Positions 1-15,329 of a stretch of 15,329 bases of DNA are shown here, piece after piece. The translations under genes were made by a program, and so were the position numbers. The stretch covers positions 1 to 15,329 of the IMG/VR virus record IMGVR_UViG_2531839583_000004; one strand, written 5' to 3'. Position 1 is the first letter of the stretch, and every line of letters begins with the position of its first letter. The notes below the pieces were generated by a model. It did not search any database. It saw nothing but the letters and a program-made list of their open reading frames with translations, and was not told the DNA's origin. Source of the stretch: a virus. Its lineage: Duplodnaviria > Heunggongvirae > Uroviricota > Caudoviricetes.

Positions 1-671
1 CCGAATCACTCGGGCAACTTGCTCATCAAAACCTGTCAGCATGGATGATTGACGTCATCGGTCACGCAATAAGCGGTACGCAGGAGCGTGAATTATCTCT
101 GGCTGAATTATCCTGGTGGGCGGTCCGCAATCAGGTGGCGGACGCGCTACCGGAAGCGGTATTACGTCGTTCGCTGGGGTTGCGTGCGGAAAAAATTCGC
201 TCTGTGTACAGTGAAAGCGACATCATACCGGGAGAGCAGACCGCCACCAGCATACTGAAACAGCGCACAAAAAATCTTGCGCCGCTGCCTCACGCCCACC
301 AGCAACAGAACCCACCACAGGAAAAGACGGTGGTCAGCATTGCCGTTGATCCCGAGTCACCGGCTCAGTATCTCCAGCGCCAGAAATCACAACGGGAAGA
401 GATGCCTGTATACACGCGCTGGGTAAAAACGCAGAAATGCATGACGTGTGGCAATCAGGCAGATGATCCGCATCACATCATTGGTCATGGACTGGGAGGG
501 ATGGGAACAAAGGCTGATGATTTGTTTGTTATTCCGCTGTGCCGTAAATGCCATAGCGAACTACACGCCGGGGTAAAAGATTTTGAAGAAAAACACGGCA
601 GCCAGCTGTTGTTGCTGATTCGTTTTTTAATGCACGCGAGAAATTCGGGTGTTCTGAAGTGGAAAGCATAA
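1..671 (+). CDS. 5'-truncated phage ORF with C-terminal Cys/His HNH-like zinc-binding motif (DUF968/YdfU-like nin-region protein); the frame is open to the window edge
   Basis: Reading frame is open from position 3 through stop at 669-671 with no upstream stop. C-terminal motif CMTCGNQADDPHHIIGHGLGG...IPLCRKCHSELH resembles HNH/zinc-ribbon. Lies immediately upstream of rusA, as such ORFs do in lambdoid prophages. Confidence 0.5.
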   Translation, partial: ESLGQLAHQNLSAWMIDVIGHAISGTQERELSLAELSWWAVRNQVADALPEAVLRRSLGLRAEKIRSVYSESDIIPGEQTATSILKQRTKNLAPLPHAHQQQNPPQEKTVVSIAVDPESPAQYLQRQKSQREEMPVYTRWVKTQKCMTCGNQADDPHHIIGHGLGGMGTKADDLFVIPLCRKCHSELHAGVKDFEEKHGSQLLLLIRFLMHARNSGVLKWKA

Positions 672-1037
672 ATGACTGAACGCATAGAATTTGTTTTGCC
701 TTACCCGCCAACGGTGAACACTTACTGGCGACGTCGTGGCAGCACATATTTTGTATCAAAAGCCGGTGAGCGTTATCGCCGTGATGTGGCGCTTATTGTT
801 CGCCAGCAGCGGCTGAAATTAAACCTGTCCGGAAGGCTGGCGATAAAGATTATTGCAGAGCCACCGGATAAACGTCGTCGTGACCTGGACAATATCCTGA
901 AAGCACCACTGGATGCGCTGACGCATGCCGGACTTCTCATAGACGACGAGCAGTTTGATGAAATCAATATTGTGCGCGGTCAGCGCGTTCCTGGGGGGCG
1001 GCTGGGCGTGAAGATTTACAAAATTGAGAGTGAGTGA
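672..1037 (+). CDS. rusA: RusA-family Holliday junction resolvase
   Basis: 121 aa; conserved RusA signature PDKRRRDLDNILKAPLDAL with acidic catalytic residues; start ATG directly follows the upstream stop; typical position upstream of Q. Confidence 0.9.
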   Translation: MTERIEFVLPYPPTVNTYWRRRGSTYFVSKAGERYRRDVALIVRQQRLKLNLSGRLAIKIIAEPPDKRRRDLDNILKAPLDALTHAGLLIDDEQFDEINIVRGQRVPGGRLGVKIYKIESE

Positions 1038-1588
1038 TCGTAAATATGATATACCCGGAAATTACAGGCAAAAGCGGCGAGCATTTACGTCTAAAAACGC
1101 TGGAAGCCGTCTGGATCCAGGGGAAATTACGGATGTGGGGGCGTTGGTCGTATATAGGTGGTGGCAAACCAGGAAATATGTTCAATCAGTTGCTGGCATC
1201 CAAAAAACTGACAAAAACCGCAATCAATGAAGCCCTGCGTAGAATCAGGGAGTCAGGGATTGATAAACCAGAGCTGGAAGCATTCTTGCGAGAGATGATC
1301 GCTGGCAGACAGAAGAGCTGGTTGTCTCACTGTACTGATGCAGAGGCGTTACGCATTGATGGGGTGATAAGTAAAGCGCTTGCACGTTATCCTGGATTGA
1401 TTGATATCCTGCGGCAAAGGTACGAAGGGCGGGGGATGAGTAAACGCAAAATGGCTGAATTGTTGAATGAGGTGCACCCGGAATGGTGTTTTAGTACATG
1501 CGAAAAGCGAATTGCTAATTGGTTAGCTGTTGCTGAATATGCGCTATACATCCCTATGCGAGAATCGTTTGCTCAAAAAATGTCTTGA
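1034..1588 (+). CDS. putative late-gene antitermination protein (Q-like, non-lambda family)
   Basis: 184 aa ORF whose start overlaps the rusA stop (ATGA), suggesting translational coupling. Sits between rusA and a promoter-plus-terminator region, the canonical Q position. Possible His/Cys metal site (SHC...HPEWCFSTC). No recognisable similarity to lambda Q, so function is inferred from position. Confidence 0.5.
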   Translation: MIVNMIYPEITGKSGEHLRLKTLEAVWIQGKLRMWGRWSYIGGGKPGNMFNQLLASKKLTKTAINEALRRIRESGIDKPELEAFLREMIAGRQKSWLSHCTDAEALRIDGVISKALARYPGLIDILRQRYEGRGMSKRKMAELLNEVHPEWCFSTCEKRIANWLAVAEYALYIPMRESFAQKMS

Positions 1589-1613
1589 TTTTTTACGCAT
1601 AAACTGTTTCAAT
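1585..1613 (+). promoter_or_regulatory. candidate late promoter (pR'-like): TTGATT, 17 bp spacer, TTCAAT
   Basis: -35-like TTGATT at 1585-1590 and a weak -10-like TTCAAT at 1608-1613, immediately downstream of the Q-like gene and about 60 bp upstream of a strong terminator, mirroring the lambda pR'/tR' arrangement. Confidence 0.25.
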
Positions 1614-1671
1614 CCAGCTACGCTTCGCAAAGCTATACCGCGAGGCGAATAGCAGACATGGACACCTGAAA

Positions 1672-1697
1672 GAACCCGCTTTATGCGGGTTTTTTTG
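1672..1697 (+). terminator. rho-independent terminator (tR'-like)
   Basis: Hairpin CCCGC (1675-1679) / GCGGG (1685-1689) with loop TTTAT, followed by a run of seven T (1690-1696). Confidence 0.8.
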
Positions 1698-1819
1698 TGC
1701 CCGAAAAGCGGTACAGGACGTTAAATGCGCTGGTGGTTGCGAATGCCGGTCTTTCAGCTTGCTGGCTTTTTCGACAAGAGGTATTGGTATGTCACGTTAA
1801 CCGGAAAAGGGAAAAAGGC

Positions 1820-2017
1820 ATGCTAAAACAGCAGGATATGACCGAAACCGCCAGAGTGGTGTTTAATGAATTAAGCATCACCGAACCGGCGACCGTCGGG
1901 GAAATTGCGCAGAATACTTACCTTTCACGCGAACGCTGCCAGTTAATACTGACTCAGCTTGTTATGGCGGGTCTGGCAGATTATCAGTTCGGTTGTTACA
2001 GACGCCTTCCGCAGTGA
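1820..2017 (+). CDS. small hypothetical protein (65 aa), possible DNA-binding fold
   Basis: ATG at 1820 preceded by a purine-rich stretch (GGAAAAGGGAAAAAGGC). The track ORF 1697..2017 would start inside the terminator hairpin, so the internal start is preferred. Its own terminator follows at 2004-2026. Confidence 0.4.
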   Translation: MLKQQDMTETARVVFNELSITEPATVGEIAQNTYLSRERCQLILTQLVMAGLADYQFGCYRRLPQ

Positions 2018-2026
2018 AGGCTTTTT
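2004..2026 (+). terminator. rho-independent terminator overlapping the 3' end of the small ORF
   Basis: Stem GCCTTC (2004-2009) / GAAGGC (2016-2021) with loop CGCAGT, followed by TTTTT (2022-2026). Confidence 0.6.
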
Positions 2027-2167
2027 AATTTGTGGTAATGGGCGGCTGGGGGGTGTTAGCGGCACCTGCCAGCCATCTGCTCATGCGTTGGGGTCACAAG
2101 CAAACCTCAGGCCCATCTGCTTTGCGCAAAAGCGGTATGAGCCTATCAGAGAAGTGCTTATTGATCT

Positions 2168-3217
2168 ATGATTAATACTGTAAAAATATCCAGTTGTGAG
2201 TTAATCAACGCTGATTGCCTGGAGTTTATCCAGACCTTACCGGAAAATTCTGTCGATCTGATAGTCACAGACCCGCCATACTTTAAAGTGAAGCCCGAGG
2301 GCTGGGATAACCAGTGGGAGGGCGACGATGATTACCTGAAATGGCTGGACCAGTGTCTGGCGCAGTTCTGGCGGGTACTGAAGCCTACCGGAAGTCTTTA
2401 CCTGTTCTGTGGTCATCGCCTGGCATCTGACACCGAAATCATGATGCGTGAGCGCTTTAATGTGCTGAACCACATTATCTGGGCGAAGCCGTCCGGACGC
2501 TGGAACGGGTGCAATAAGGAAAGTCTGCGGGCGTATTTTCCGGCAACAGAGCGCATTCTGTTTGCAGAACATTATCAGGGACCGTATCGCCCGAAAGATG
2601 ATGGCTATGTGGCACAGGGGCGCGAGCTAAAACAGCACGTCATGGCCCCGCTGATTTCTTACTTTCGTGATGCGCGTAAATCACTGGGAATAACGTCAAA
2701 ACAGATAGCGGAAGCCACCGGAAAGAAAAACATGGCTTCGCACTGGTTTGGTACCAGTCAGTGGCAGTTACCGAACGAGGGGGATTACAACAAATTGCAG
2801 GCGTTGTTTGCGCGTGTTGCGGCAGAAAAACATCAGCGCGGGGAACTGGAAAAGCCACACCACCAGCTGGTCAGCACATACAGTGAGCTGAACCGGCAGT
2901 ACACGGAACTGCTGAGTGAATATAAAAATTTGCGGCGGTATTTCGGTGTGACGGCGCAGGTTCCGTACACCGATGTCTGGACGCATAAACCGGTGCAGTA
3001 CTATCCAGGAAAACATCCGTGCGAAAAACCGGCAGAAATGCTGCAGCAGATAATCAACGCGAGCAGTCGTCCGGGAGACCTGGTTGCAGATTTTTTTATG
3101 GGTTCAGGTTCAACGGTAAAAGCGGCGATGGCACTGGGGCGTTGTGCGATTGGTGTTGAGCTGGAGACAGGACGTTTTGAACAGACAGTCAGGGAAGTTC
3201 AGGATTTAATCGTTTGA
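2168..3217 (+). CDS. DNA amino-methyltransferase (N6-adenine or N4-cytosine), beta-class, orphan
   Basis: 349 aa. Motif IV DPPY (LIVTDPPYF) near the N-terminus and motif I FxGxG (DFFMGSGST) near the C-terminus give the beta-class order. A central region with an HTH-like segment (LGITSKQIAEATGK) is the likely target-recognition region. No adjacent restriction endonuclease ORF. Confidence 0.9.
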   Translation: MINTVKISSCELINADCLEFIQTLPENSVDLIVTDPPYFKVKPEGWDNQWEGDDDYLKWLDQCLAQFWRVLKPTGSLYLFCGHRLASDTEIMMRERFNVLNHIIWAKPSGRWNGCNKESLRAYFPATERILFAEHYQGPYRPKDDGYVAQGRELKQHVMAPLISYFRDARKSLGITSKQIAEATGKKNMASHWFGTSQWQLPNEGDYNKLQALFARVAAEKHQRGELEKPHHQLVSTYSELNRQYTELLSEYKNLRRYFGVTAQVPYTDVWTHKPVQYYPGKHPCEKPAEMLQQIINASSRPGDLVADFFMGSGSTVKAAMALGRCAIGVELETGRFEQTVREVQDLIV

Positions 3218-3266
3218 AACGGATGAGATTGCAGAATTAATTACGCACCATTATTATTCTGCTCCC

Positions 3267-3342
3267 GGCCCTTTAGCTCAGTGGTGAGAGCGAGCGACTC
3301 ATAATCGCCAGGTCGCTGGTTCAAATCCAGCAAGGGCCACCA
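3267..3342 (+). tRNA. tRNA with anticodon CAU (Ile2/lysidine-type or Met), including encoded CCA
   Basis: Cloverleaf: acceptor GGCCCTT/AAGGGCC, D-arm GCTC...GAGC, anticodon loop CTCATAA (anticodon CAT at 3300-3302), T-loop GGTTCAAATCC, 3' ACCA. Very close to E. coli ileX and to ileZ of Stx phages as recalled. Confidence 0.9.
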
Positions 3343-3349
3343 TCACATA

Positions 3350-3423
3350 CCGCCATTAGCTCATCGACAGAGAGTGCCAGCTTTCGAAACTGGCTGTGTG
3401 GGGCTCGGGTCCCCGATGGCAAT
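3350..3423 (+). pseudogene. degenerate tRNA-like element (possible decayed tRNA-Arg, anticodon-like TCG)
   Basis: Partial cloverleaf: acceptor CCGCCAT/ATGGCAA with two terminal mismatches, D-arm GCTC...GAGA, anticodon-like stem GCCAG/CTGGC around a 9-nt loop CTTTCGAAA (TCG central), T-arm TGGGG-CTCGGGT-CCCCG. No encoded CCA. Confidence 0.3.
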
Positions 3424-3439
3424 CCATTATCTGCATTAT

Positions 3440-3516
3440 GCGTTGTTAGCTCAGCCGGACAGAGCAATTGCCTTCTAAGCAATCGGTCACTGGTTCGAAT
3501 CCAGTACAACGCGCCA
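3440..3516 (+). tRNA. tRNA-Arg (anticodon UCU), including encoded CCA
   Basis: Acceptor GCGTTGT/ACAACGC, D-arm GCTCAGCCGGACAGAGC, anticodon loop CTTCTAA (anticodon TCT), T-loop GGTTCGAATCC, discriminator G plus CCA at 3514-3516. Resembles the argU/argO type. Confidence 0.9.
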
Positions 3517-3529
3517 CGCTTATTTTTCC

Positions 3530-3554
3530 AGGCTCGCTTTGGCGGGCCTTTTTC
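3530..3554 (+). terminator. rho-independent terminator downstream of the tRNA cluster
   Basis: Stem AGGCTCGC (3530-3537) / GCGGGCCT (3542-3549) including one G-U pair, loop TTTG, followed by TTTT (3550-3553). Confidence 0.5.
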
Positions 3555-3763
3555 ATATCCGCGCCCGTTATGAAGCGCCACCGCGTTCTGCTAATGCTGA
3601 AGCCCTTCGTCAGCTGACTGATGTTGCAGATACTGATGATACTGTGAATGTGCTGTGTCTGTGTCTGGATATCGCTGACCAGGACGGTATCGGTCAGGAA
3701 GAAGAAGCGCAACTGAAGAAAATTGCGCAGGCGCTGCAGTTGCCGCTGGAGCAGTACCTGTGA
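3539..3763 (+). pseudogene. TerB-like C-terminal fragment (probable gene remnant, 74 codons, no ATG start)
   Basis: ORF begins at TTG inside the terminator hairpin and has no in-frame ATG. The translation (VLCLCLDIADQDGIGQEEEAQLKKIAQALQLP) resembles the C-terminal half of TerB/DjlA-N-type domains as I recall them. GC-rich. Confidence 0.3.
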
Positions 3764-3912
3764 AAAGTGCGCGCCTTGTGCTGGCTGTCATCCTGTTGTT
3801 TCTGGTAGTGATGGTGGATTTCACCGGACGACTGATGTCAGTGCTGGCAGATGGTGTGCTGGTGGCGATGGCGCTGATCGTGCTCCGGCCTTTACTGCGT
3901 AAATCTGAATAA
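3760..3912 (+). CDS. small hydrophobic membrane protein (50 aa), GTG start overlapping the upstream stop
   Basis: GTG at 3760 overlaps TGA 3761-3763 (GTGA). Translation VKSARLVLAVILLFLVVMVDFTGRLMSVLADGVLVAMALIVLRPLLRKSE predicts two hydrophobic helices. Below the ORF-track size cutoff. Confidence 0.35.
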   Translation: MKSARLVLAVILLFLVVMVDFTGRLMSVLADGVLVAMALIVLRPLLRKSE

Positions 3913-4000
3913 CATCACACAAAAGGCATCTGCGGGGGCCTTTGACGGGGTGTTTTTTTACGGGTCGCTGGTGGCCCTTTTTTTATTTTCAGGAGGAAGT

Positions 4001-4390
4001 ATGTCTGAACCCTTATCCGGTTCCGGCACGGCTGCGGCGCTGGGTGGCGCGACGGTATTCGGGCTGTTTACCGGGATGGATTTCGGGATTGTGTTTGGCG
4101 CGTTCGCCGGGGCGTTATTTGTGGCAACGATGCCGCAGTCACTTTCAGTCTGGCGCGTGGTGGCGCATTTTCTGGTGTCGTTTATTGTCGGCGTGCTGGG
4201 AGCGCGTGTGCTGTCAGCCTGGATTGCATCAAAAACAGGGTATGACGGTACATCGGCAGATGCGCTGTGTGCGGTGCTGGTATCGGTGGTGTCGGTGAAG
4301 ATTCTGTCGTTCATCCACCAGCAGGATATTGCATCGTTGGTGTCCGGTGTGTTCTCCCGTCTGCGGGGTGGAGGCGGTAATGTTAAGTAA
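4001..4390 (+). CDS. putative holin (multi-pass membrane protein, 129 aa)
   Basis: Strong Shine-Dalgarno AGGAGGA 5 nt upstream of ATG 4001. Gly/Ala-rich hydrophobic segments with a charged C-terminal tail. First gene of a cassette ending in an endolysin. No similarity to lambda S recalled. Confidence 0.55.
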   Translation: MSEPLSGSGTAAALGGATVFGLFTGMDFGIVFGAFAGALFVATMPQSLSVWRVVAHFLVSFIVGVLGARVLSAWIASKTGYDGTSADALCAVLVSVVSVKILSFIHQQDIASLVSGVFSRLRGGGGNVK

Positions 4391-4655
4391 CCTTCCCGGA
4401 TTACTGAATGTGGTGTTAAGCACGGTTATCGTGCTGACGCTCTTTTTTTATCGTCGTGGTGATTCCAGACATAAACCGCTGATGTCGTGGCTGGCCTGGC
4501 TGCTGATGCTGCTGTATGCCTTTGCGCCACTTTGTTATCTGTGTGGTCGCTTTCCACCCGGTAACTGGCTGGTCGTCCTGATTAACCTGGTGTTCTGCGT
4601 GCTGGTGATACGAGCACGCGGGAACGTATCAAAAATCCTTTCATTACGGAGGTGA
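4380..4655 (+). CDS. second lysis-cassette membrane protein (holin/antiholin-like, 91 aa)
   Basis: GGAGG 5 nt upstream of ATG 4380; overlaps the holin 3' end by 11 nt; stop is 2 nt before the endolysin start. Predicted 2-3 transmembrane segments. Confidence 0.5.
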   Translation: MLSNLPGLLNVVLSTVIVLTLFFYRRGDSRHKPLMSWLAWLLMLLYAFAPLCYLCGRFPPGNWLVVLINLVFCVLVIRARGNVSKILSLRR

Positions 4656-4657
4656 GT

Positions 4658-5035
4658 ATGCCCGGTAAATTCAGATTCAGTCGTCGAAGTGAGAAAAATC
4701 TGGAGGGCGTCAAACCACAGCTGGTTGCTGTTGTTCGCCGTGCGCTGGAGCTGACGGAGGTTGACTTCGGTATTACGGAAGGCCTGCGCAGTAAGTATCG
4801 CCAGAAGCAGCTGGTCGCGGAAGGGAAAAGCCAGACCATGAACAGCCGCCACCTGACCGGTGATGCGGTGGATGTTGTGGCCTACATTGGTAGCCAGGTG
4901 TCATGGGACTGGCCTCTGTACGAGAAAATCGCGCAGGCATTTAAGCAGGCTGCCGCAGAGCTGGGAACTGCCATCGAATGGGGCGGGGACTGGAAAACAC
5001 TGAAAGACGGGCCTCACTTTCAGTTGAAGTGCTAA
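4658..5035 (+). CDS. endolysin, peptidase M15 family (L-alanyl-D-glutamate endopeptidase, T5 Lys-like)
   Basis: GGAGG 5 nt upstream of ATG 4658. Conserved Zn-ligand context SRHL...DAVD...DGPHFQL (His, Asp, His) typical of M15 phage endolysins. About 126 aa. Confidence 0.85.
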   Translation: MPGKFRFSRRSEKNLEGVKPQLVAVVRRALELTEVDFGITEGLRSKYRQKQLVAEGKSQTMNSRHLTGDAVDVVAYIGSQVSWDWPLYEKIAQAFKQAAAELGTAIEWGGDWKTLKDGPHFQLKC

Positions 5036-5049
5036 TAACCAGGTGGTTT

Positions 5050-5232
5050 ATGAGCCGAAAACACTGGACACACAGAATGCCGCGAACGGCGGCGAAATGG
5101 GCACTGGTAGCGATACTGGTGCCTTTTTTCCTGGTGGGATGCGTTAGCCTGGATAAGGTGCGCCAGCTTTTCGATACGGCCTCGCAGGTCTGCGAAATTG
5201 TCGAAAGTGCCAGGCAGTGTATGCAGAACTGA
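5050..5232 (+). CDS. small lipoprotein (lipobox LVGC); possible o-spanin-like or other lysis-associated lipoprotein
   Basis: AGGTGG upstream of ATG 5050. Signal peptide AKWALVAILVPFFLVG followed by Cys; mature peptide about 30 aa with three Cys. Immediately follows the endolysin. No Rz-like partner ORF detected. Confidence 0.5.
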   Translation: MSRKHWTHRMPRTAAKWALVAILVPFFLVGCVSLDKVRQLFDTASQVCEIVESARQCMQN

Positions 5233-5319
5233 TCGCCTGTAAGAGCAGAATATTGTTGAATCTAAATTTACTTTGAACAGTGGCCCGGATGGAAAGGGCA
5301 TCTAAATAGGAGCAGAAAA

Positions 5320-5529
5320 ATGTTAACTGTAAAAGTCATGTCTCAAAATGGTGGGGAAGAGCTCCATTGCGGGCGTAGCATTGGCTATCATCCAGAGCAG
5401 CGGAGTATTGCCGTATCGGGAAAGGATGGGAAAGTCATTCTGAAAGATGGAGATATTGCTTATGTAATGAACCAAAACGCTCAAATAATATCTGTTTATC
5501 GGCCCAATAATAGTCAGAAAAACATTTGA
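5320..5529 (+). CDS. hypothetical small protein (69 aa) in AT-rich moron
   Basis: Good Shine-Dalgarno AGGAG 6 nt upstream of ATG 5320. Low-GC codon usage distinct from flanking phage genes. Confidence 0.5.
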   Translation: MLTVKVMSQNGGEELHCGRSIGYHPEQRSIAVSGKDGKVILKDGDIAYVMNQNAQIISVYRPNNSQKNI

Positions 5530-5571
5530 ATTTCGCAAGTCCAAAGTTCAGTGGTGATCGTTATCAACTAA

Positions 5572-5600
5572 TTGAAATAACAAGCTTATGTTTGTGTAAT
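5572..5600 (+). promoter_or_regulatory. candidate sigma70 promoter (TTGAAA, 17 bp spacer, TGTAAT) for the second moron ORF
   Basis: TTGAAA at 5572-5577, 17-bp spacer, TGTAAT at 5595-5600, about 50 bp upstream of the ORF starting at 5653. Confidence 0.35.
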
Positions 5601-5652
5601 TGGTGATATAGCATGTTAATGCTGAATATCAGCGTCAACATGGAGTTATACA

Positions 5653-5868
5653 ATGGTTTTTAAACACTATTACGTGAACAAAAATGCTCAGAGCAATGGC
5701 GATCATGAGGTGCATGCTGAGGAATGTTCATATCTTCCTGCTGTAGCTAACCGCGATTACCTTGGTTACTATAGTGATTGTTCTTCGGCGGTAACAGAGG
5801 CAAAGGCCAAAGGATATTCCCGGGTGAATGGTTGCTATTGGTGTGCCAATAAGTGCCACACGTCTTAA
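5653..5868 (+). CDS. hypothetical small Cys/His-rich protein (71 aa) in AT-rich moron
   Basis: GGAG 8 nt upstream of ATG 5653. Cys/His pattern (EEC...DC...GCYWCANKCH) suggests a metal-binding mini-domain. Followed directly by a terminator. Confidence 0.5.
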   Translation: MVFKHYYVNKNAQSNGDHEVHAEECSYLPAVANRDYLGYYSDCSSAVTEAKAKGYSRVNGCYWCANKCHTS

Positions 5869-5887
5869 TCAATTGTCAATAAACCAT

Positions 5888-5911
5888 AAAGGCCGCTCTG
5901 CGGCCTTTTTC
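5888..5911 (+). terminator. rho-independent terminator closing the moron
   Basis: Stem GGCCG (5891-5895) / CGGCC (5901-5905), loop CTCTG, then TTTTT (5906-5910); an upstream A-run makes it potentially bidirectional. Confidence 0.7.
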
Positions 5912-6185
5912 ATGTTAAAAAAGATTGCGGCATTACAGCAGCCCTTCACACTGAGTGGCTGCGATAATGTGAGAAATAAAAAACCGGCAGGGGAAATCCA
6001 TTGAAGATTTGCCGGTGGCAAAAAGATGGCCATGCTTTCAACCTTAGTCGCAGGGTTACGGAGTGCAACTACGAATGCTGCCGGTATATGGCTGAATGGC
6101 GTTTCAATGATGTACGTCATCTTATCTGTAAATGTTAATGATAAAAGCTCTCATTTGTGCGGGTCCTTCCGGTGGGGTGGCCTGC

Positions 6186-6206
6186 CACGGGGCGGAAGGC
6201 GCGCGG
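6186..6206. other. cosN (cohesive-end site), variant 12-nt core GGGCGGAAGGCG
   Basis: Flanking sequence ...CACG|GGGCGG......|CGCGGGTTTTCGCTATTTATGAAAATTTTCCGG matches the lambda left end as recalled. The 12-nt core differs from lambda GGGCGGCGACCT at positions 7-10 and 12. Confidence 0.6.
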
Positions 6207-6239
6207 GTTTTCGCTATTTATGAAAATTTTCCGGGGAAA

Positions 6240-6356
6240 ATCATGTCGGTACTTCTCGAACATAACTATTTGTTTTTTCTAATATCGAATCCGTAAAAGG
6301 TCCGACATGAAAACGCCTAAAAAAGTCATTTTCGGGCACTTTCATGTCGGACCCTG
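6240..6356. promoter_or_regulatory. cosB-like region: three CATGTCGG(A/T)C repeats (R3, inverted R2, R1) around an AT-rich putative IHF-bending segment
   Basis: CATGTCGGTAC at 6242-6252 (+), TCCGACATGAAA at 6301-6312 (inverted), TTTCATGTCGGACC at 6341-6354 (+); AT-rich spacer 6254-6298. Arrangement parallels lambda R3-I1-R2-R1 but with a different repeat sequence. Confidence 0.55.
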
Positions 6357-6377
6357 TGTTTGTTGTGAGACTGTTTC

Positions 6378-6897
6378 ATGAAGGTTAATAAAAAGAAACT
6401 TGCCGAAATTTTCAACGTGGATCCGCGAACGATTGAACGCTGGCAGTCTCAGGGACTCCCTTGCGTCTCCGGAGGTGGTAAGGGCGTTGAATCTGTATTT
6501 GATACCTCCATGGCAATTCAGTGGTATGCGCAGAGGGAGGCTGATATCGAAAATGAAAAACTCCGTAAAGAGGTTGAGGATTACAGGGCTGCCAGTGAGG
6601 CAGATCTCCAGCCTGGGACTATTGAGTACGAACGCCATCGACTTACGCGTGCGCAGGCCGACGCACAGGAGCTGAAGAATGCCAGAGACTCCGCAGAAGT
6701 GGTGGAAACCGCATTCTGTACTTTCGTGCTGTCACGGATCGCAGGTGAAATTGCCAGTATTCTTGACGGGATCCCTCTCTCGGTACAGCGGCGTTTTCCG
6801 GAACTGGAAAACCGACATGTTGATTTCCTGAAACGGGATATCATCAAAGCCATGAACAAAGCAGCCGCGCTGGATGAACTGATACCGGGGTTGCTGA

Positions 6898-6923
<26 letters not shown>
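6378..6923 (+). CDS. nu1: terminase small subunit Nu1
   Basis: 181 aa. C-terminal two thirds essentially identical to lambda Nu1 as recalled; N-terminal winged-HTH region homologous but diverged. Located just downstream of cos. Confidence 0.95.
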
Positions 6924-10604
<3,681 letters not shown>

Positions 10605-10624
<20 letters not shown>

Positions 10625-11924
10625 TCTCCCGCATATTGCCAGCATGGCCTTTAATGAGCCGCTGATGCTTGAACCCGCCTATGCGCGGGTTTTCTTTTGT
10701 GCGCTTGCAGGCCAGCTTGGGATCAGCCGCCTGACGGATGCGGTGTCCGGCGACAGCCTGACTGCCCAGGAGGCACTCGTGACGCTGGCATTATCCGGTG
10801 ATGATGACGGACCACGACAGGCCCGCAGTTATCAGGTCATGAACGGCATCGCCGTGCTGCCGGTGTCCGGCACGCTGGTCAGCCGGACGCGGGCGCTGCA
10901 GCCGTACTCGGGGATGACCGGTTACAACGGCATTATCGCCCGTCTGCAACAGGCTGCCAGCGACCCGATGGTGGACGGCATTCTGCTCGATATGGACACG
11001 CCAGGCGGAATGGTGGCGGGGGCATTTGACTGCGCTGACATCATCGCCCGTGTGCGTGACATAAAACCGGTATGGGCGCTGGCCAACGACATGAACTGCA
11101 GTGCAGGTCAGCTGCTTGCCAGTGCCGCCTCCCGGCGTCTGGTCACGCAGACCGCCCGGACAGGCTCCATCGGCGTCATGATGGCTCACAGTAATTACGG
11201 TGCTGCCCTGGAGAAACAGGGTGTGGAAATCACGCTGATTTACAGCGGCAGCCATAAGGGGGATGGCAATCCCTACAGCCATCTTCCGGATGACGTCCGG
11301 GAGACACTGCAGTCCCGGATGGACGCAACCCGCCAGATGTTTGCGCAGAAGGGGTCGGCATATACCGGCCTGTCTGTGCAGGCTGTGCTGGATACCGAGG
11401 CTGCAGTGTACAGCGGTCAGGAGGCCATTGATGCCGGACTGGCTGATGAACTTGTTAACAGCACCGATGCGATCACCGTCATGCGTGATGCACTGGATGC
11501 GCGTAAATCCCGTCTCTCAGGAGGGCGAATGACCAAAGAGACTCAATCAACAACTGTTTCAGCCACTGCTTCGCAGACTGACGTTACTGACGTGGTGCCA
11601 GCGACGGAGGGCGAAAACGCCAGCGCGGCGCAGCCGGACGTGAACGCGCAGATCACCGCTGCGGTTGCGGCAGAAAACAGCCGCATTATGGGGATCCTCA
11701 ACTGTGAGGAGGCTCACGGACGCGAAGAACAGGCCCGCGTGCTGGCAGAAACCCCCGGTATGACCGTGGAAACGGCCCGCCGCATTCTGGCAGCTGCACC
11801 ACAGAGTGCACAGGCGCGCAGTGACACTGCGCTGGATCGTCTGATGCAGGGGGCACCGGCACCGCTGGCTGCAGGTAACCCGGCATCTGATGCCGTTAAC
11901 GATTTGCTGAACACACCAGTGTAA
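10605..11924 (+). CDS. C: capsid assembly protease / minor capsid protein C
   Basis: GTG start at 10605 overlapping the B 3' end by 20 nt; 439 codons; translation VTAELRNLPHIASMAFNEPLMLEP... matches lambda gpC. The track ORF start at 10458 lies inside B and is rejected. Confidence 0.93.
11319..11924 (+). CDS. nu3: scaffolding protein Nu3 (in-frame internal start within C)
   Basis: In-frame ATG at 11319 giving MDATRQMFAQKGSAYTGL..., co-terminal with C as in lambda. Confidence 0.8.
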   Translation: MDATRQMFAQKGSAYTGLSVQAVLDTEAAVYSGQEAIDAGLADELVNSTDAITVMRDALDARKSRLSGGRMTKETQSTTVSATASQTDVTDVVPATEGENASAAQPDVNAQITAAVAAENSRIMGILNCEEAHGREEQARVLAETPGMTVETARRILAAAPQSAQARSDTALDRLMQGAPAPLAAGNPASDAVNDLLNTPV

Positions 11925-11933
11925 GGGATGTTT

Positions 11934-12266
11934 ATGACGAGCAAAGAAACCTTTACCCATTACCAGCCGCTGGGCAACAGTGACCCGGCACATACGGCAA
12001 CCGCGCCCGGCGGATTGAGTGCGAAAGCGCCTGCAATGACCCCGCTGATGCTGGACCCCTCCACCCGTAAGCTGGTTGTGTGGGATGGCACCACCGACGG
12101 TGCTGCCGTTGGCATTCTGGCGGTTGCTGCTGACCAGACCAGCACCACGCTGACGTTCTACAAGTCCGGCACGTTCCGTTATGAGGATGTGCTCTGGCCG
12201 GAGGCTGCCAGCGACGAGACGAAAAAACGGACCGCGTTTGCCGGAACGGCAATCAGCATCGTTTAA
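11934..12266 (+). CDS. D: head decoration protein D
   Basis: 110 aa, [27 protein letters not shown]... matches lambda gpD; Shine-Dalgarno AAGGGA upstream of ATG 11934. Confidence 0.95.
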
Positions 12267-12286
12267 CCTTACCCTTCATCACTAAA

Positions 12287-12308
12287 GGCCGCCTGTGCGG
12301 CTTTTTTT
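12287..12308 (+). terminator. intergenic hairpin plus T-run between D and E (terminator/attenuator-like)
   Basis: Stem GCCGC (12288-12292) / GCGGC (12297-12301), loop CTGT, then TTTTTTT (12302-12308). Confidence 0.45.
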
Positions 12309-12321
12309 ACGGGATTTTTTT

Positions 12322-13347
12322 ATGTCGATGTACACAACCGCCCAGCTGCTGGCGGCAAATGAGAAGAAATTTAAGTTTGATCCGCTGTTTCTGCGTCTCT
12401 TTTTCCGTGAGAGCTATCCCTTCACCACGGAGAAAGTCTATCTCTCACAAATTCCGGGACTGGTAAACATGGCGCTGTACGTTTCGCCGATTGTTTCCGG
12501 TGAGGTTATCCGCTCCCGTGGCGGCTCCACCTCTGAATTTACACCGGGATATGTCAAGCCGAAGCATGAGGTGAATCCGCAGATGACCCTGCGTCGCCTG
12601 CCGGATGAAGATCCACAGAATCTGGCGGACCCGGCTTACCGCCGCCGTCGCATCATTCTGCAGAACATGCGAGACGAAGAGCTGGCCATTGCTCAGGTCG
12701 AAGAGATGCAGGCCGTTTCTGCCGTGCTTAAGGGCAAATATACCATGACCGGTGAAGCCTTCGATCCGGTTGAAGTGGATATGGGCCGCAGTGTGGCGAA
12801 CAACATCACGCAGTCCGGCGGTACGGAGTGGAGCAAGCGTGACAAGTCCACGTATGACCCGACCGACGATATCGAAGCCTACGCGCTGAACGCCAGCGGT
12901 GTGGTGAATATCATCGTGTTTGATCCGAAAGGCTGGGCGCTGTTCCGTTCCTTCAAAGCCGTCAGGGAGAAGCTGGATGCCCGTCGCGGCTCTCATTCCG
13001 AGCTGGAGACAGCGGTAAAAGATCTGGGCGAAGCGGTGTCCTATAAGGGGATGTATGGCGATACGGCGATCGTCGTGTATTCCGGACAGTACGTGGAAAA
13101 CGACGTCAAAAAGAACTTCCTGCCGGACAACACGATGGTGCTGGGGAACACTCAGGCACGCGGTCTGCGCACCTATGGCTGCATTCAGGATGCGGACGCA
13201 CAGCGCGAAGGTATTAACGCCTCTGCCCGCTACCCGAAAAACTGGGTGACCACCGGCGATCCGGCGCGTGAGTTCACCATGATTCAGTCAGCACCGCTGA
13301 TGCTGCTGGCTGACCCTGATGCGTTCGTGTCCGTACAACTGGCGTAA
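12322..13347 (+). CDS. E: major capsid protein E
   Basis: 341 aa, MSMYTTAQLLAANEKKFKFDPLFLRLFF... matches lambda gpE. ATG 12322 is preferred over the track start 12295, which lies inside the hairpin. Confidence 0.97.
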   Translation: MSMYTTAQLLAANEKKFKFDPLFLRLFFRESYPFTTEKVYLSQIPGLVNMALYVSPIVSGEVIRSRGGSTSEFTPGYVKPKHEVNPQMTLRRLPDEDPQNLADPAYRRRRIILQNMRDEELAIAQVEEMQAVSAVLKGKYTMTGEAFDPVEVDMGRSVANNITQSGGTEWSKRDKSTYDPTDDIEAYALNASGVVNIIVFDPKGWALFRSFKAVREKLDARRGSHSELETAVKDLGEAVSYKGMYGDTAIVVYSGQYVENDVKKNFLPDNTMVLGNTQARGLRTYGCIQDADAQREGINASARYPKNWVTTGDPAREFTMIQSAPLMLLADPDAFVSVQLA

Positions 13348-13388
13348 TCATGGCCCTTCGGGGCCATTTTCTCTCTGTGGAGGAGTCC

Positions 13389-13784
13389 ATGACGAAAGAT
13401 GAACTGATTGCCCGTCTTCAGGTGCTGGGTGAGCAACTGAACCGTGATGTCAGCCTGACGGGGACGAAAGAAGAACTGGCACTCCGTGTGGCAGAGCTGG
13501 AAGAGGAGCTTGATGACACGGATGACGCTGCTGGTCAGGACACATCTGTCAGCCCGGAAAATGCGCTGACCGGACATGAAAATGAGGTTGTATCAGCGCA
13601 GCCGGATACCGTGACTGATACGGCTGATCTGGTCACGGTTGTGGCACTGGTGACGCTGCATACTGATGCACTTCACGCCACGCGGGATGAGGCTGTGGCA
13701 TTTGTGCTGCCGGGAACGGCGTTCCGTGTCTCTGCCGGTGTGGCAGCTGAAATGACAGAGCGCGGCCTGGCCAGAATGCAATAA
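13389..13784 (+). CDS. FI: DNA packaging / head completion protein FI
   Basis: 131 aa, MTKDELIARLQVLGEQLNRDVSLTGTKEELALRVAELEEEL... matches lambda gpFI; Shine-Dalgarno GGAGGAG upstream. Confidence 0.9.
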   Translation: MTKDELIARLQVLGEQLNRDVSLTGTKEELALRVAELEEELDDTDDAAGQDTSVSPENALTGHENEVVSAQPDTVTDTADLVTVVALVTLHTDALHATRDEAVAFVLPGTAFRVSAGVAAEMTERGLARMQ

Positions 13785-13795
13785 CGGGAGGCGCT

Positions 13796-14149
13796 GTGGC
13801 TGATTTCGATAACCTGTTCGATGCTGCCATTGCCCGCGCCGATGAAACGATACGCGGGTACATGGGAACGTCAGCCACCATGACATCCGGTGAGCAGTCC
13901 GGTGCTGTGATACGTGGTGTTTTTGATGATCCTGAAAATATCAGCTATGCCGGACAGGGCGTGCGCGTTGAAGGCTCCAGCCCGTCCCTGTTTGTCCGGA
14001 CTGATGATGTGCGGCAGCTGCGGCGTGGAGACACGCTGACCATCGGTGAGGAAAACTTCTGGGTAGATCGGGTTACGCCGGATGATGGCGGAAGCTGTCA
14101 TCTCTGGCTTGGGCGGGGGGTACCGCCTGCCGTTAACCGTCGCCGCTGA
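13796..14149 (+). CDS. FII: head-tail connector protein FII
   Basis: GTG start at 13796; 117 aa; ADFDNLFDAAIARADETIRGYMGT... matches lambda gpFII. Confidence 0.9.
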   Translation: MADFDNLFDAAIARADETIRGYMGTSATMTSGEQSGAVIRGVFDDPENISYAGQGVRVEGSSPSLFVRTDDVRQLRRGDTLTIGEENFWVDRVTPDDGGSCHLWLGRGVPPAVNRRR

Positions 14150-14160
14150 AAGGGGGATGT

Positions 14161-14739
14161 ATGGCCATAAAAGGTCTTGAGCAGGCCGTTGAAAACCTCA
14201 GCCGTATCAGCAAAACGGCGGTGCCTGGTGCCGCCGCAATGGCCATTAACCGCGTTGCTTCATCCGCGATATCGCAGTCGGCGTCACAGGTTGCCCGTGA
14301 GACAAAGGTACGCCGGAAACTGGTAAAGGAAAGGGCCAGGCTGAAAAGGGCCACGGTCAAAAATCCGCAGGCCAGAATCAAAGTTAACCGGGGGGATTTG
14401 CCCGTAATCAGGCTGGGTAACGCGCGGGTTGTCCTGTCCCGACGCAGGCGTCGTAAAAAGGGGCAGCGTTCAGCCCTGAAAGGTGGCGGCAGCGTGCTTG
14501 TGGTGGGAAACCGTCGTATTCCCGGCGCGTTTATTCAGCAACTGAAAAATGGCCGCTGGCATGTCATGCAGCGTGTGGCCGGGAAAAACCGTTACCCCAT
14601 TGATGTGGTGAAAATCCCGATGGCGGTGCCGCTGACCACGGCGTTTAAACAGAATATTGAACGGATACGGCGTGAACGTCTTCCGAAAGAGCTGGGCTAT
14701 GCGCTGCAGCATCAACTGAGAATGGTAATAAAGCGATGA
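14161..14739 (+). CDS. Z: tail completion protein Z
   Basis: 192 aa, MAIKGLEQAVENLSRISKTAVPGAAAMAINRV... matches lambda gpZ; Shine-Dalgarno AGGGGGA upstream. Confidence 0.95.
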   Translation: MAIKGLEQAVENLSRISKTAVPGAAAMAINRVASSAISQSASQVARETKVRRKLVKERARLKRATVKNPQARIKVNRGDLPVIRLGNARVVLSRRRRRKKGQRSALKGGGSVLVVGNRRIPGAFIQQLKNGRWHVMQRVAGKNRYPIDVVKIPMAVPLTTAFKQNIERIRRERLPKELGYALQHQLRMVIKR

Positions 14740-15131
14740 AACATACTGAACTCCGTGCAGCCGTACTGGATGCACTGGAGAAGCATGACACCGGGGCGAC
14801 GCTTTTTGATGGTCGCCCCGCTGTTTTTGATGAGGCGGATTTTCCGGCAGTTGCCGTTTATCTCACCGGCGCTGAATACACGGGCGAAGAGCTGGACAGC
14901 GATACCTGGCAGGCGGAGCTGCATATCGAAGTTTTCCTGCCTGCTCAGGTGCCGGATTCAGAGCTGGATGCGTGGATGGAGTCCCGGATTTATCCGGTGA
15001 TGAGCGATATCCCGGCACTGTCAGATTTGATCACCAGTATGGTGGCCAGCGGCTATGACTACCGGCGCGACGATGATGCGGGCCTGTGGAGTTCAGCCGA
15101 TCTGACTTATGTCATTACCTATGAAATGTGA
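14736..15131 (+). CDS. U: tail tube terminator protein U
   Basis: 131 aa, MKHTELRAAVLDALEKHDTGATLFDGRPAVFDEADF... matches lambda gpU; ATGA overlap with the Z stop. Confidence 0.95.
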   Translation: MKHTELRAAVLDALEKHDTGATLFDGRPAVFDEADFPAVAVYLTGAEYTGEELDSDTWQAELHIEVFLPAQVPDSELDAWMESRIYPVMSDIPALSDLITSMVASGYDYRRDDDAGLWSSADLTYVITYEM

Positions 15132-15138
15132 GGACGCT

Positions 15139-15159
15139 ATGCCTGTACGGAAACATTGA
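15139..15159 (+). pseudogene. V: vestigial start of major tail gene V (ATGCCTGTAC) followed by an in-frame stop after 6 codons
   Basis: Sequence AGGACGCTATGCCTGTAC matches the lambda U-V junction and V start as recalled, then diverges; frame reads M-P-V-R-K-H-stop. Confidence 0.4.
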
Positions 15160-15329
15160 CTTTATCGAGATCTCGGCGCGCGGTCTGCCTTCTTCGCTTA
15201 CTGCTGATAATGTATCTCGTTACCTGAGTATACGCCGTTTAGGGCCAACCGGGCTAATCAATAGCATGCAAATGCGTTACGGCCTGGTTAAAGATGATGG
15301 CTTTATTGAGGTTTGGGCCTTCCAGCGTG

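Follow-up and report, generated by a model that had tools for sequence, protein, structure and literature searches.

A conserved structured leader and a linked gene for a predicted winged-helix protein precede an M.EcoGII-family methylase gene in lambdoid prophages

How does a temperate phage carry a DNA methylase that is harmful to its host, keep it quiet in the lysogen, and release it late? The question is raised by a stretch of 15,329 nucleotides of viral (Caudoviricetes) DNA, positions 1 to 15,329 of IMG/VR record IMGVR_UViG_2531839583_000004 (hereafter the window), which belongs to a lambdoid E. coli prophage, covers its late region with the start of the late operon, and encodes a 349-aa methylase of the M.EcoGII family. 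M.EcoGII itself, a 349-aa beta-class enzyme on a prophage of E. coli O104:H4, methylates adenine whatever the context in both DNA and RNA, is silent during normal growth and in the lysogen, and is deleterious on expression (PMC5778455). The enzyme is sold as a commercial tool and is the textbook promiscuous phage methylase, and in the literature on it we found no description of how phages silence and release such a lethal activity. In the window the methylase gene is preceded by a 65-aa open reading frame (ORF), and the 140-nt spacer between the two (2030-2170) is better conserved than either adjoining gene. We find that this spacer is a structured RNA leader that ends at the methylase start codon, and we favour, with a probability of roughly 0.6, a layered silencing or gating cassette for a toxic late methylase in which the small winged-helix gene is a dedicated partner. 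The elements of this cassette are the following.

1672-1697, + strand: terminator 1, a strong intrinsic terminator resembling tR'
1758-1796, + strand: block that is a candidate weak promoter
1820-2017, + strand: 65-aa ORF for a predicted minimal winged-helix protein, a coding sequence in RefSeq
2004-2031, + strand: terminator 2, a hairpin followed by TTTTTAATTT
2030-2170, + strand: structured methylase leader, with domains SL1 (2038-2084) and SL2 (2091-2167)
2168-3217, + strand: 349-aa methylase, M.EcoGII family

Nucleotide identity among relatives is 0.69-0.81 in the spacer, against 0.57-0.77 in the ORF and 0.65-0.74 in the methylase gene. The leader is non-coding, because stop codons and 1-nt insertions or deletions break the frame; a 45-aa ORF within it (ATG at 2038, overlapping the methylase start) was rejected on the same grounds, most relatives stopping after 7-33 codons. 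The RNAalifold consensus coincides with the window's own minimum-free-energy fold and has two domains. SL1 is a long hairpin with a stem of about 20 bp, and SL2 is a branched hairpin in whose basal helix GGGUCAcAAGC is paired to GCUUAuUGAUCU, the last 12 nt ahead of the AUG at 2168. On the sense strand the leader folds at -60.6 kcal/mol (z = -2.8), against -47.3 kcal/mol for the antisense, and G-U pairs are frequent, which points to an RNA made from the sense strand.

Raw column-pair covariation over 23 sequences gave many spurious pairs and was discarded; since these pairs came from one deep phylogenetic split, more clades were used together with slid and shuffled controls. When pairs were counted on a hand-built structure in 35 non-redundant sequences, 92.1% of cells were paired against 30-42% with the partners slid, 12 pairs carried two-sided (compensatory) change against a shuffled mean of 8.9, and the covariation score was 0.214, which none of 500 shuffles reached, against 0.142. 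By eye, the SL1 stems are built from differing sequences that nonetheless make the same hairpin. A covariance model from this 35-sequence alignment gave a single sense-strand match per locus, always ending at the methylase ATG and scoring 126.5 bits for the window. It also matched, at full length, sequences on which it had not been trained, namely six N15-like phages (43-64 bits) and one Vibrio phage, the seven together spanning 36-64 bits and E values of 6e-6 to 3e-12. In a wider set that included those phages, 27 of 40 pairs showed compensatory change, in an alignment that was itself fitted to the model. The comparisons thus establish a sense-strand RNA structure together with its position at the start codon.

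No relevant leader match was found in Rfam at E<=10 within 1990-2200 (only sub-threshold miRNA and CRISPR-repeat models, at E>=0.73) and none at E<=1 in the phiKO2, N15 and Yersinia P840 loci, and a literature search that included strings of the leader sequence found no description of the element. A GATC (Dam) site at -6 to -3 of the methylase start (window 2162-2167, CTGATCTATG) is present in nearly all lambdoid versions of the leader; in the Morganellaceae versions the pairing partner contains another GATC, and the N15-like phages lack the site.

The leader lies between two genes that remain together over considerable divergence. Wherever a genome locus reaches far enough downstream to tell (27 of 27), an M.EcoGII-family gene follows the ORF, with the two starts 337-354 nt apart, as ORF identity falls from 98% to 52% and methylase identity from 100% to 61%. 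The spacer between them measures 142-153 nt wherever the ORF is intact, and across 190 loci the Q modules upstream vary and the ORF-methylase pair stays joined. ORF, leader and methylase are therefore tightly linked.

The ORF is a real protein-coding gene under purifying selection. Over 28 genome loci, which represent about 12 Enterobacterales genera, it is 62-67 aa long and with one exception intact (26 of 27 in another count), with homologues in Escherichia, Shigella, Salmonella, Klebsiella, Citrobacter, Buttiauxella and other genera. Between the window and a Salmonella locus the proportion of synonymous change (pS) is 0.73, with synonymous sites saturated, and that of nonsynonymous change (pN) is 0.083, and the mean pN/pS is 0.44; the original prediction, made from the window's sequence alone, had made the case for the ORF depend on conservation across homologous prophages, and such conservation is what we find. 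The conserved start is the ATG at 1820. A 106-aa form from the GTG at 1697, proposed by some gene callers, was rejected, its extension being unconserved and overlapping the T-run of terminator 1.

The product matches phrog_331 (E 6e-37) and is labelled in RefSeq as 'TrmB family transcriptional regulator' or 'hypothetical'. The TrmB profile PF01978 did not reach its threshold (18.4 bits against a cutoff of 25.6, E 0.002), and neither an NCBIfam nor an Xre-family match was obtained. The protein spans the core of a winged helix only, with a weak match to the HTH_24 profile besides that to TrmB. Its AlphaFold2 model has three helices at moderate confidence (a pLDDT score of 69.5) and a poorly predicted wing region, and the top Foldseek matches, none of them significant (best E 0.4), are all winged-helix folds, DNA-binding repressors and RNA-binding SelB domains among them. 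To judge from these models it is probably a minimal winged-helix protein.

Related arrangements occur beyond the lambdoid prophages. N15, phiKO2 and their relatives carry, in order, gp51 (a 75-aa winged-helix protein), a putative late promoter, a terminator, the leader and the methylase gp52. BLASTP of the 65-aa protein against phiKO2 gp51 gave no match; profile comparison alone connects them, hhalign of the 65-aa family with N15/phiKO2 gp51 giving a probability of 87% (E 3.8e-6, 55 columns), so that gp51 is a probable homologue. The terminator-leader-methylase unit of the N15-like phages has no small ORF between terminators, and these phages encode Q elsewhere, in immB (PMC4997575). For N15 itself (AF064539.1), a tblastn match to the methylase at 1501-1735 of the locus begins with residue 1, 234 nt before the annotated start of gene 52; since the leader model ends at that point as well, the deposited gp52 start is probably too far downstream.

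In Vibrio phage ST2-1pr the order is an 82-aa ORF, a terminator, the leader, a Com zinc-ribbon ORF and an M.EcoGII-family methylase. The 82-aa ORF is unclassified, with no Pfam match and 30% identity to phiKO2 gp51. The Com ORF matches PF10122 (E 1e-5, 25.3 bits against a cutoff of 22.9), and its AUG lies inside the basal helix of SL2. Within 597-910 of this locus (MZ496293.1) the leader match scores 36 bits and the Com ORF runs from an ATG at 728 to 838; the AGGAGG of the methylase itself falls within a small hairpin.

Two terminators bracket the ORF, as the original prediction had it, and the first is strong and the second weak taken alone. Terminator 1 (AACCCGC-TTTAT-GCGGGTT followed by T7) folds at -22.4 kcal/mol with z = -6.1, and none of 200 shuffles folds as well. 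The short RNA that is made downstream of Q ends here; every aligned locus has an equivalent GC hairpin and T-run, variable in sequence, ahead of the module, and the homology of phiP27 and the Stx phages to the window begins at this terminator. A consensus terminator scan, which listed 19 terminator-like sites against 7.4 +/- 2.7 expected, missed terminator 1, apparently because greedy stem extension consumed the T-run. The segment 1622-1695, which ends in terminator 1, is a weak full-length match to the small RNA family IsrK (21.6 bits, E 0.22, sub-threshold), and the short transcript may be an RNA of the IsrK/StxS type; a comparative paper on pR' (PMC6266700) mentions neither the methylase nor the ORF.

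Terminator 2 (GCCTTC-CGCAGT-GAAGGC at 2004-2021, then TTTTTAATTT) overlaps the ORF stop codon and was listed by the consensus scan, and its own fold is weak (-8.9 kcal/mol, z = -1.2). In Enterobacteriaceae its stem is kept through two-sided changes (GCCUUC/GAAGGC, GCCUCC/GGAGGC, GCUGCC/GGCAGU). It is good only in the Escherichia, Enterobacter and Salmonella versions; the U-run has deteriorated in those of Kluyvera, Klebsiella, Citrobacter and Buttiauxella, and the Proteus and Providencia (Morganellaceae) versions lack the hairpin. In the N15-like phages a terminator stands equally far before the leader. Terminator 2 thus belongs to an ancestral terminator-leader-methylase unit, and the insulated mini-unit that had been proposed for the bracketed ORF describes the region only in part: its second boundary goes with the 140-nt leader, which that proposal overlooked, and the N15-like unit does without an intervening ORF. 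Terminator 1 and the next 25 nt (1672-1725, TTTTTTTGTGCCCGAAAAG...) resemble positions 1340-1400 of the N15 locus, its late terminator and the start of its leader (local score 41 against 17.5 +/- 3.6 for shuffles), from which the ORF cassette may have been inserted between an ancestral terminator and leader. The possibility that the stretch around terminator 1 and that of terminator 2 with the leader are internal duplicates of each other was considered and rejected (local score 18 against a shuffled mean of 19.9).

Between terminator 1 and the ORF lies a conserved block, CTTGCTG-N17-TATTGG-TATGTCAC, at about 55 nt before the ORF in all genera. Over 30 loci from many genera TTGCTG and CAGAGTTA are near-invariant and their spacing is fixed. 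As a candidate promoter it would have its -35 at TTGCTG (1759-1764) and a -10-like TATTGG at 1782-1787 (TATCTG or TACATG in other genera), and its pattern and spacing are those of the annotated putative late promoter of N15/phiKO2, TTGGCA-N17-TATCTT/TATCGT. A sigma-70 scan does not accept it, the sixth position of the -10 being other than T. That scan gave no sites in 1-6500, including between ORF and methylase, so pR' and a methylase promoter could not be placed. An RNA fold for 1758-1796 was rejected, the RNA consensus energy being only -4.4 and the helices inconsistent.

Because the enzyme is toxic, stacked silencing devices are to be expected in the lysogen, and the elements described above would supply them in series. 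Polymerase that is not antiterminated would stop at the tR'-like terminator 1; polymerase that leaks through, or that starts at the block 1758-1796, would transcribe the small gene and stop at terminator 2; and polymerase modified by Q would pass both. The methylase message would even then have no usable Shine-Dalgarno sequence and would hold its initiation region in the base of SL2, so that the leader, as modelled, may repress or gate translation. The small winged-helix protein would be the best candidate for opening or closing this gate, by binding either the leader RNA, in the manner of Com, or the leader DNA, and most likely it acts in some such way on the leader or on methylase expression. 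Made only late, after Q-dependent antitermination, the methylase would render progeny DNA resistant to many adenine-sensitive restriction systems, and no nuclease would be needed. A bolder form of this idea, which we put forward tentatively and think less likely than not, is that leader and winged-helix protein make up an undescribed and widespread cassette that gates translation, the protein being an RNA-binding activator of translation, equivalent in function to Mu Com without being its homologue, or the leader a self-acting riboregulator of a new class; its spread would take in about 60% of complete E. coli genomes, to go by matches to the 1972-nt query described below, as well as Stx, N15-like and Vibrio phages.

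The gating step was evaluated without an alignment, as the predicted probability that positions -12 to -1 of the methylase are paired. Its mean is 0.66 over all sequences and 0.53 with the upstream sequence shuffled; it reaches 0.77-0.96 in Morganellaceae-type versions and 0.53-0.81 in most Enterobacteriaceae versions (11 of 14). For 20 of 24 lambdoid versions these positions pair with a partner at least 45 nt upstream, with a probability of 0.44-0.95; in the loci L091, L093 and L139 such long-range pairing is only about 0.01-0.07. No usable Shine-Dalgarno sequence was found at normal spacing before the methylase AUG.

Several observations weigh against the cassette as we read it. Occlusion of the start site is only modestly above background, and in the N15-like phages the start region is 0.20-0.56 paired with a long-range partner at <=0.26, the basal helix being weak or not predicted; given this modest signal and this failure, occlusion of translation may not be the conserved function of the leader, and we accordingly give less weight to translation inhibition. 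Much of the covariation in the first data set comes from the one deep split between Enterobacteriaceae and Morganellaceae, and the widest alignment is the model-fitted one. The centre of P4 in the leader is palindromic DNA in every clade (GCGC, ACGT, TGCA, CGCG), so that a dyad-symmetric protein site on DNA would fit it as well as a hairpin does. The 65-aa protein has no CCCC zinc ribbon and no PF10122 match, having one or two cysteines, and none of its fold matches is significant, most of them being to winged helices that bind DNA. Co-transcription of the small gene with the methylase is not conserved, because the N15 homologue sits upstream of the late promoter, and the ORF is intact in about 20 sampled, closely related E. 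coli prophage variants from which the methylase has been lost. Finally, the non-specificity of the window's methylase is an assumption, because its target recognition domain has diverged from that of M.EcoGII (about 13 of 78 positions).

The best-surviving rival, possible though in our judgement unlikely, is that the 65-aa protein is an ordinary transcription factor that binds DNA. Bound as a dimer to the dyad at 2123-2137 (GCTTTGCGCAAAAGC) or to the block 1758-1796, it would repress or activate itself and the methylase, and the conservation of the leader would be in part that of operator DNA. The fold matches lean this way, mostly naming the DNA-binding repressors CzrA, OhrR and MarR, as do the weak TrmB and HTH_24 profile matches, the similarity of the block before the ORF to the N15 late promoter, and the P4 palindrome, a symmetry that the loop of an RNA need not have. 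What a DNA operator would not need is the strand asymmetry of the leader, with its G-U pairs and its sense-strand fold more stable by the energies given above; SL1 also speaks against it, with loops that are non-palindromic and a stem that varies freely yet stays paired. The leader motif is, moreover, fixed to the start codon and not to a promoter, and no sigma-70-like promoter was detected between ORF and methylase.

Slightly less probable, in our view, is that the leader acts by itself, whether as an S-adenosylmethionine or S-adenosylhomocysteine (SAM/SAH) riboswitch, as an element for processing or stability through RNase III or RNase E, as a put- or nut-like RNA that would modify the polymerase where the late operon begins, or as a target of the methylase. 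Sensing of SAM or SAH would make sense given that the enzyme depends on SAM, M.EcoGII methylates RNA, and the SL1 stem of about 20 bp has the size of an RNase III substrate. The leader also has invariant single-stranded stretches (AAUGGGCG, GGCCCA, AAAGC) of the sort found in ligand- or protein-binding RNAs, and AUGGGC could form a switch by pairing alternatively with an invariant GCCCA located 65 nt downstream. The N15-like phages speak for it too, since there occlusion of the start region is not predicted and the motif comes directly after the late terminator. Set against this are the lack of similarity to Rfam riboswitches or other families at E<=10, the constant end of the motif at the start codon, and its fate in the methylase-less variants, where it is deleted along with the methylase and not retained for the downstream late genes.

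Those variants (loci L165 and L178 and about 18 similar IMG/VR loci) have a 237-aa AraC-like gene in place of the methylase, for example at 2501-3830 of L165. The breakpoint falls within SL1, and the 65-aa ORF, terminator 2 and ileZ-argN-argO are kept. Because the 3' part of the leader was lost along with the methylase, the leader appears to serve the methylase and not the rest of the late operon. The survival of the ORF bears on an improbable third view, that it is an independent moron (promoter, gene and terminator) expressed from the prophage and adjacent to the methylase merely as part of a co-inherited recombination module. Its position between terminators behind a conserved promoter-like block would suit a moron, as would the location of its probable N15-like homologue on the far side of the late promoter. 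Linkage nevertheless holds from 98% to about 50% ORF identity, in about 12 genera and beside different Q modules, and mosaic phage genomes seldom keep unrelated genes adjacent over such divergence. In the N15-like phages the probable homologue again adjoins leader and methylase, an 82-aa ORF occupies the matching position in the Vibrio phage, and the methylase-less variants are one closely related E. coli group that may be recent. The suggestion in the original prediction that the ORF could regulate the methylase therefore stands as a reasonable inference from tight linkage, qualified by the persistence of the ORF in these variants.

The methylase is what it was first taken to be, a 349-aa beta-class enzyme of the late region with an N-terminal DPPY and a C-terminal FxGxG. 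It matches Pfam PF01555 (N6_N4_Mtase, E 6.5e-45) across residues 29-340, its DPPY spanning residues 35-38 (nt 2270-2281) and its F-M-G-S-G residues 310-314 (nt 3095-3109), positions that give the beta-class order of motif IV, target recognition domain and motif I. Aligned with M.EcoGII, taken from a machine-read supplement of the SUPREM paper in which a few reading errors are possible, it is identical at 316 of 350 positions (about 90%), with 2 gaps, about 34 substitutions in total, and the same length of 349 aa. About 13 of the 78 positions of the target recognition domain differ (about 83% identity, the alignment read by eye), and the nearest solved structures are only distant beta-class methyltransferases. 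By sequence, then, it is a typical representative of the M.EcoGII family, phage adenine methylases without specificity that have been characterised before, and we infer that the window's copy is probably non-specific as well.

What has been published on the family is consistent with this assignment. The authors of the M.EcoGII study called the methyltransferase of phage 1720a-02 very similar to their enzyme (PMC5778455), and this phage is among the sequences that match the window; reconstructed ancestors of the family are mostly non-site-specific too (PMC11551740). In O111 Shiga toxin-producing E. coli (STEC), M.EcoGI/II homologues of 92-94% similarity are listed as non-specific and the lysogen methylomes have no detectable motif (PMC6602927). 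A review groups Mom with M.EcoGII, both being silent in lysogens and toxic (PMC12707154), and the homologue of Yersinia telomere phage P840 is dispensable, as lysis and lysogeny survive its disruption (PMC10612081). From these properties the methylase is an accessory late function, which most plausibly serves to protect progeny DNA broadly against restriction.

Of the two roles first proposed, late anti-restriction or epigenetic, the literature favours the former, which fits better, and a site-specific epigenetic role is unlikely; a search for a target motif would likely be fruitless because the type member methylates adenine in any context. Orphan methyltransferases with epigenetic roles do occur, Dam and CcrM among them. 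That this methylase is another such sequence-specific orphan, active in the lysogen, is very improbable, for the precedent and the divergent target recognition domain are outweighed by about 90% identity to a non-specific enzyme silent in lysogens, by the motif-free methylomes of strains with 92-94%-similar homologues, and by the placing of the gene behind two terminators and a structured leader.

The orphan status of the gene, also part of the original prediction, was borne out: no restriction endonuclease was found in the 15-kb window or, in an E. coli prophage of 99.9% identity, in the next 6 kb upstream, and PADLOC returned methyltransferase models only for the locus. The genes and sites that flank the cassette are as follows.

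45-671: DUF968/NinG-like gene
672-1037: RusA gene
1034-1588, + strand: Q-like late antiterminator gene of the DUF1133 family, which marks the start of the late region
3267-3516, + strand: tRNA cluster ileZ-(degenerate argN)-argO, following the methylase as in Stx phages
3530-3549, + strand: terminator-like hairpin with a T-run after the tRNAs, from the consensus scan (-14.6 kcal/mol, z = -3.4)

The Q-like gene matches Pfam DUF1133 (E 6e-103), Phage_antitermQ (28.3 bits, cutoff 26) and phrog_753, 'anti-termination protein Q-like' (E 8e-78). ARAGORN finds a tRNA gene at 3267-3342 with anticodon CAT, annotated as Ile (tRNA-Ile2), and one at 3440-3516 with TCT (Arg-UCU); both are supported by the Rfam tRNA model (72.5 and 70.1 bits), and the RefSeq and phiP27 annotations concur. 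A degenerate tRNA-like sequence between them (3350-3423; Rfam tRNA 23.7 bits, threshold 29) is probably a decayed argN, because related prophages have three tRNAs here. The hairpin at 3530-3549 is an additional stop for polymerase without antitermination. Beyond 3549 come a gene fragment, a DUF3927 gene, and then holins, endolysin, terminase and portal. The fragment, at 3539-3912 in the position that stxAB takes in Stx phages, is the C-terminal part of a TerB-like gene (tellurite-resistance family) annotated as a pseudogene, and the gene after it is a 50-aa DUF3927/TciB-like one. After the lysis genes, at 5888-5908, a GC-rich hairpin of 9 perfectly matched base pairs has a T-run on each strand and forms a bidirectional terminator-like site.

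This arrangement is widespread. The segment 1589-3560 (1972 nt) is 99.9% identical to chromosomal prophages of human enterotoxigenic (ETEC)-type E. coli strains, and used as a query it is found in 3276 of 5426 complete E. coli genomes, the match covering 80% or more of the query in 1768 of these; because it spans ORF, methylase and both tRNAs, some of these matches may be to the tRNAs only. In phiP27 (genes L23, L24) and many Stx2a, Stx2c and Stx2d phages the ORF-methylase-tRNA module lies directly upstream of stx. One prophage (in NZ_CP025856.1) has, at 1043-1567 and 5458-6000, Q-like genes of two different kinds separated by about 4 kb. One is an 'antiterminator Q family protein' and the other the DUF1133 gene beside the module; hokD and others lie between them, and the whole looks like a mosaic or tandem late-control region.

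The kind of methylase in the window was already known, and its earlier description alone is of low interest; if the regulatory idea is wrong, the locus is one more copy of a known prophage methylase. What is new is the ORF as a conserved partner of the methylase, terminator 2 as a part of the ancestral unit, and an undescribed, widespread structured leader at the methylase start. If the idea is right, leader and small partner protein would be the missing layer of control over this enzyme, and one that is very common in E. coli and lies immediately upstream of the tRNA-stx region in Shiga-toxin phages. The leader is a ready candidate for a new RNA family, and the pair of leader and protein might be used for tight control of toxic genes.

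The locus can be set beside several known systems. It shares with M.EcoGII/M.EcoGI of E. coli O104:H4 C227-11 a 349-aa enzyme of about 90% identity with DPPY...FxGxG, a lambdoid prophage setting and the lack of a cognate nuclease; the winged-helix gene upstream and the leader RNA are not described in that work (PMC5778455). As with the controller (C) proteins of restriction-modification systems, the gene for a small helix-turn-helix protein, thought to time expression, lies beside a methyltransferase gene; unlike those Xre-type proteins, which bind C-boxes and mainly control the nuclease gene, it has here no nuclease, no Xre fold and no C-box. Terminator 1 follows the Q-like gene as tR' does in the pR'-tR' short transcripts StxS and IsrK, though the IsrK match is below its gathering score and this element lies upstream of, and is distinct from, the new leader. 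The N15/phiKO2/PY54-like telomere phages come closer, with a homologous methylase (55-61% identity), a homologous leader and a terminator directly before it; unlike in the window, their winged-helix gene is upstream of a putative late promoter and not between two terminators.

The closest functional precedent is com-mom of phage Mu, in which the 62-aa Com binds a hairpin beside a translation-inhibition structure and so permits a late toxic DNA-modifying enzyme to be made (PMC6483171), and Mu-like prophages (FluMu, Pnm1, Hia) have com-like genes before non-specific adenine methyltransferases (PMC3299994). As in Mu, what is probably a toxic, late anti-restriction enzyme is encoded here behind a short gene, its product about 62-65 aa long, and behind an mRNA hairpin adjoining a helix that may cover the start. 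The resemblance would be one of function only, the 65-aa protein not being a homologue of Com: it is probably a winged helix where Com is a CCCC zinc ribbon, the methylase has no relation to Mom, and the leader, at 140 nt and with two domains, is much larger than the Mu site and has no sequence in common with it. If the reading that we favour holds, the cassette would be a second, independently evolved example of com-mom logic, and Vibrio phage ST2-1pr, where a genuine Com-family ORF precedes a relative of the methylase behind the same leader, would be a natural bridge between the two systems.

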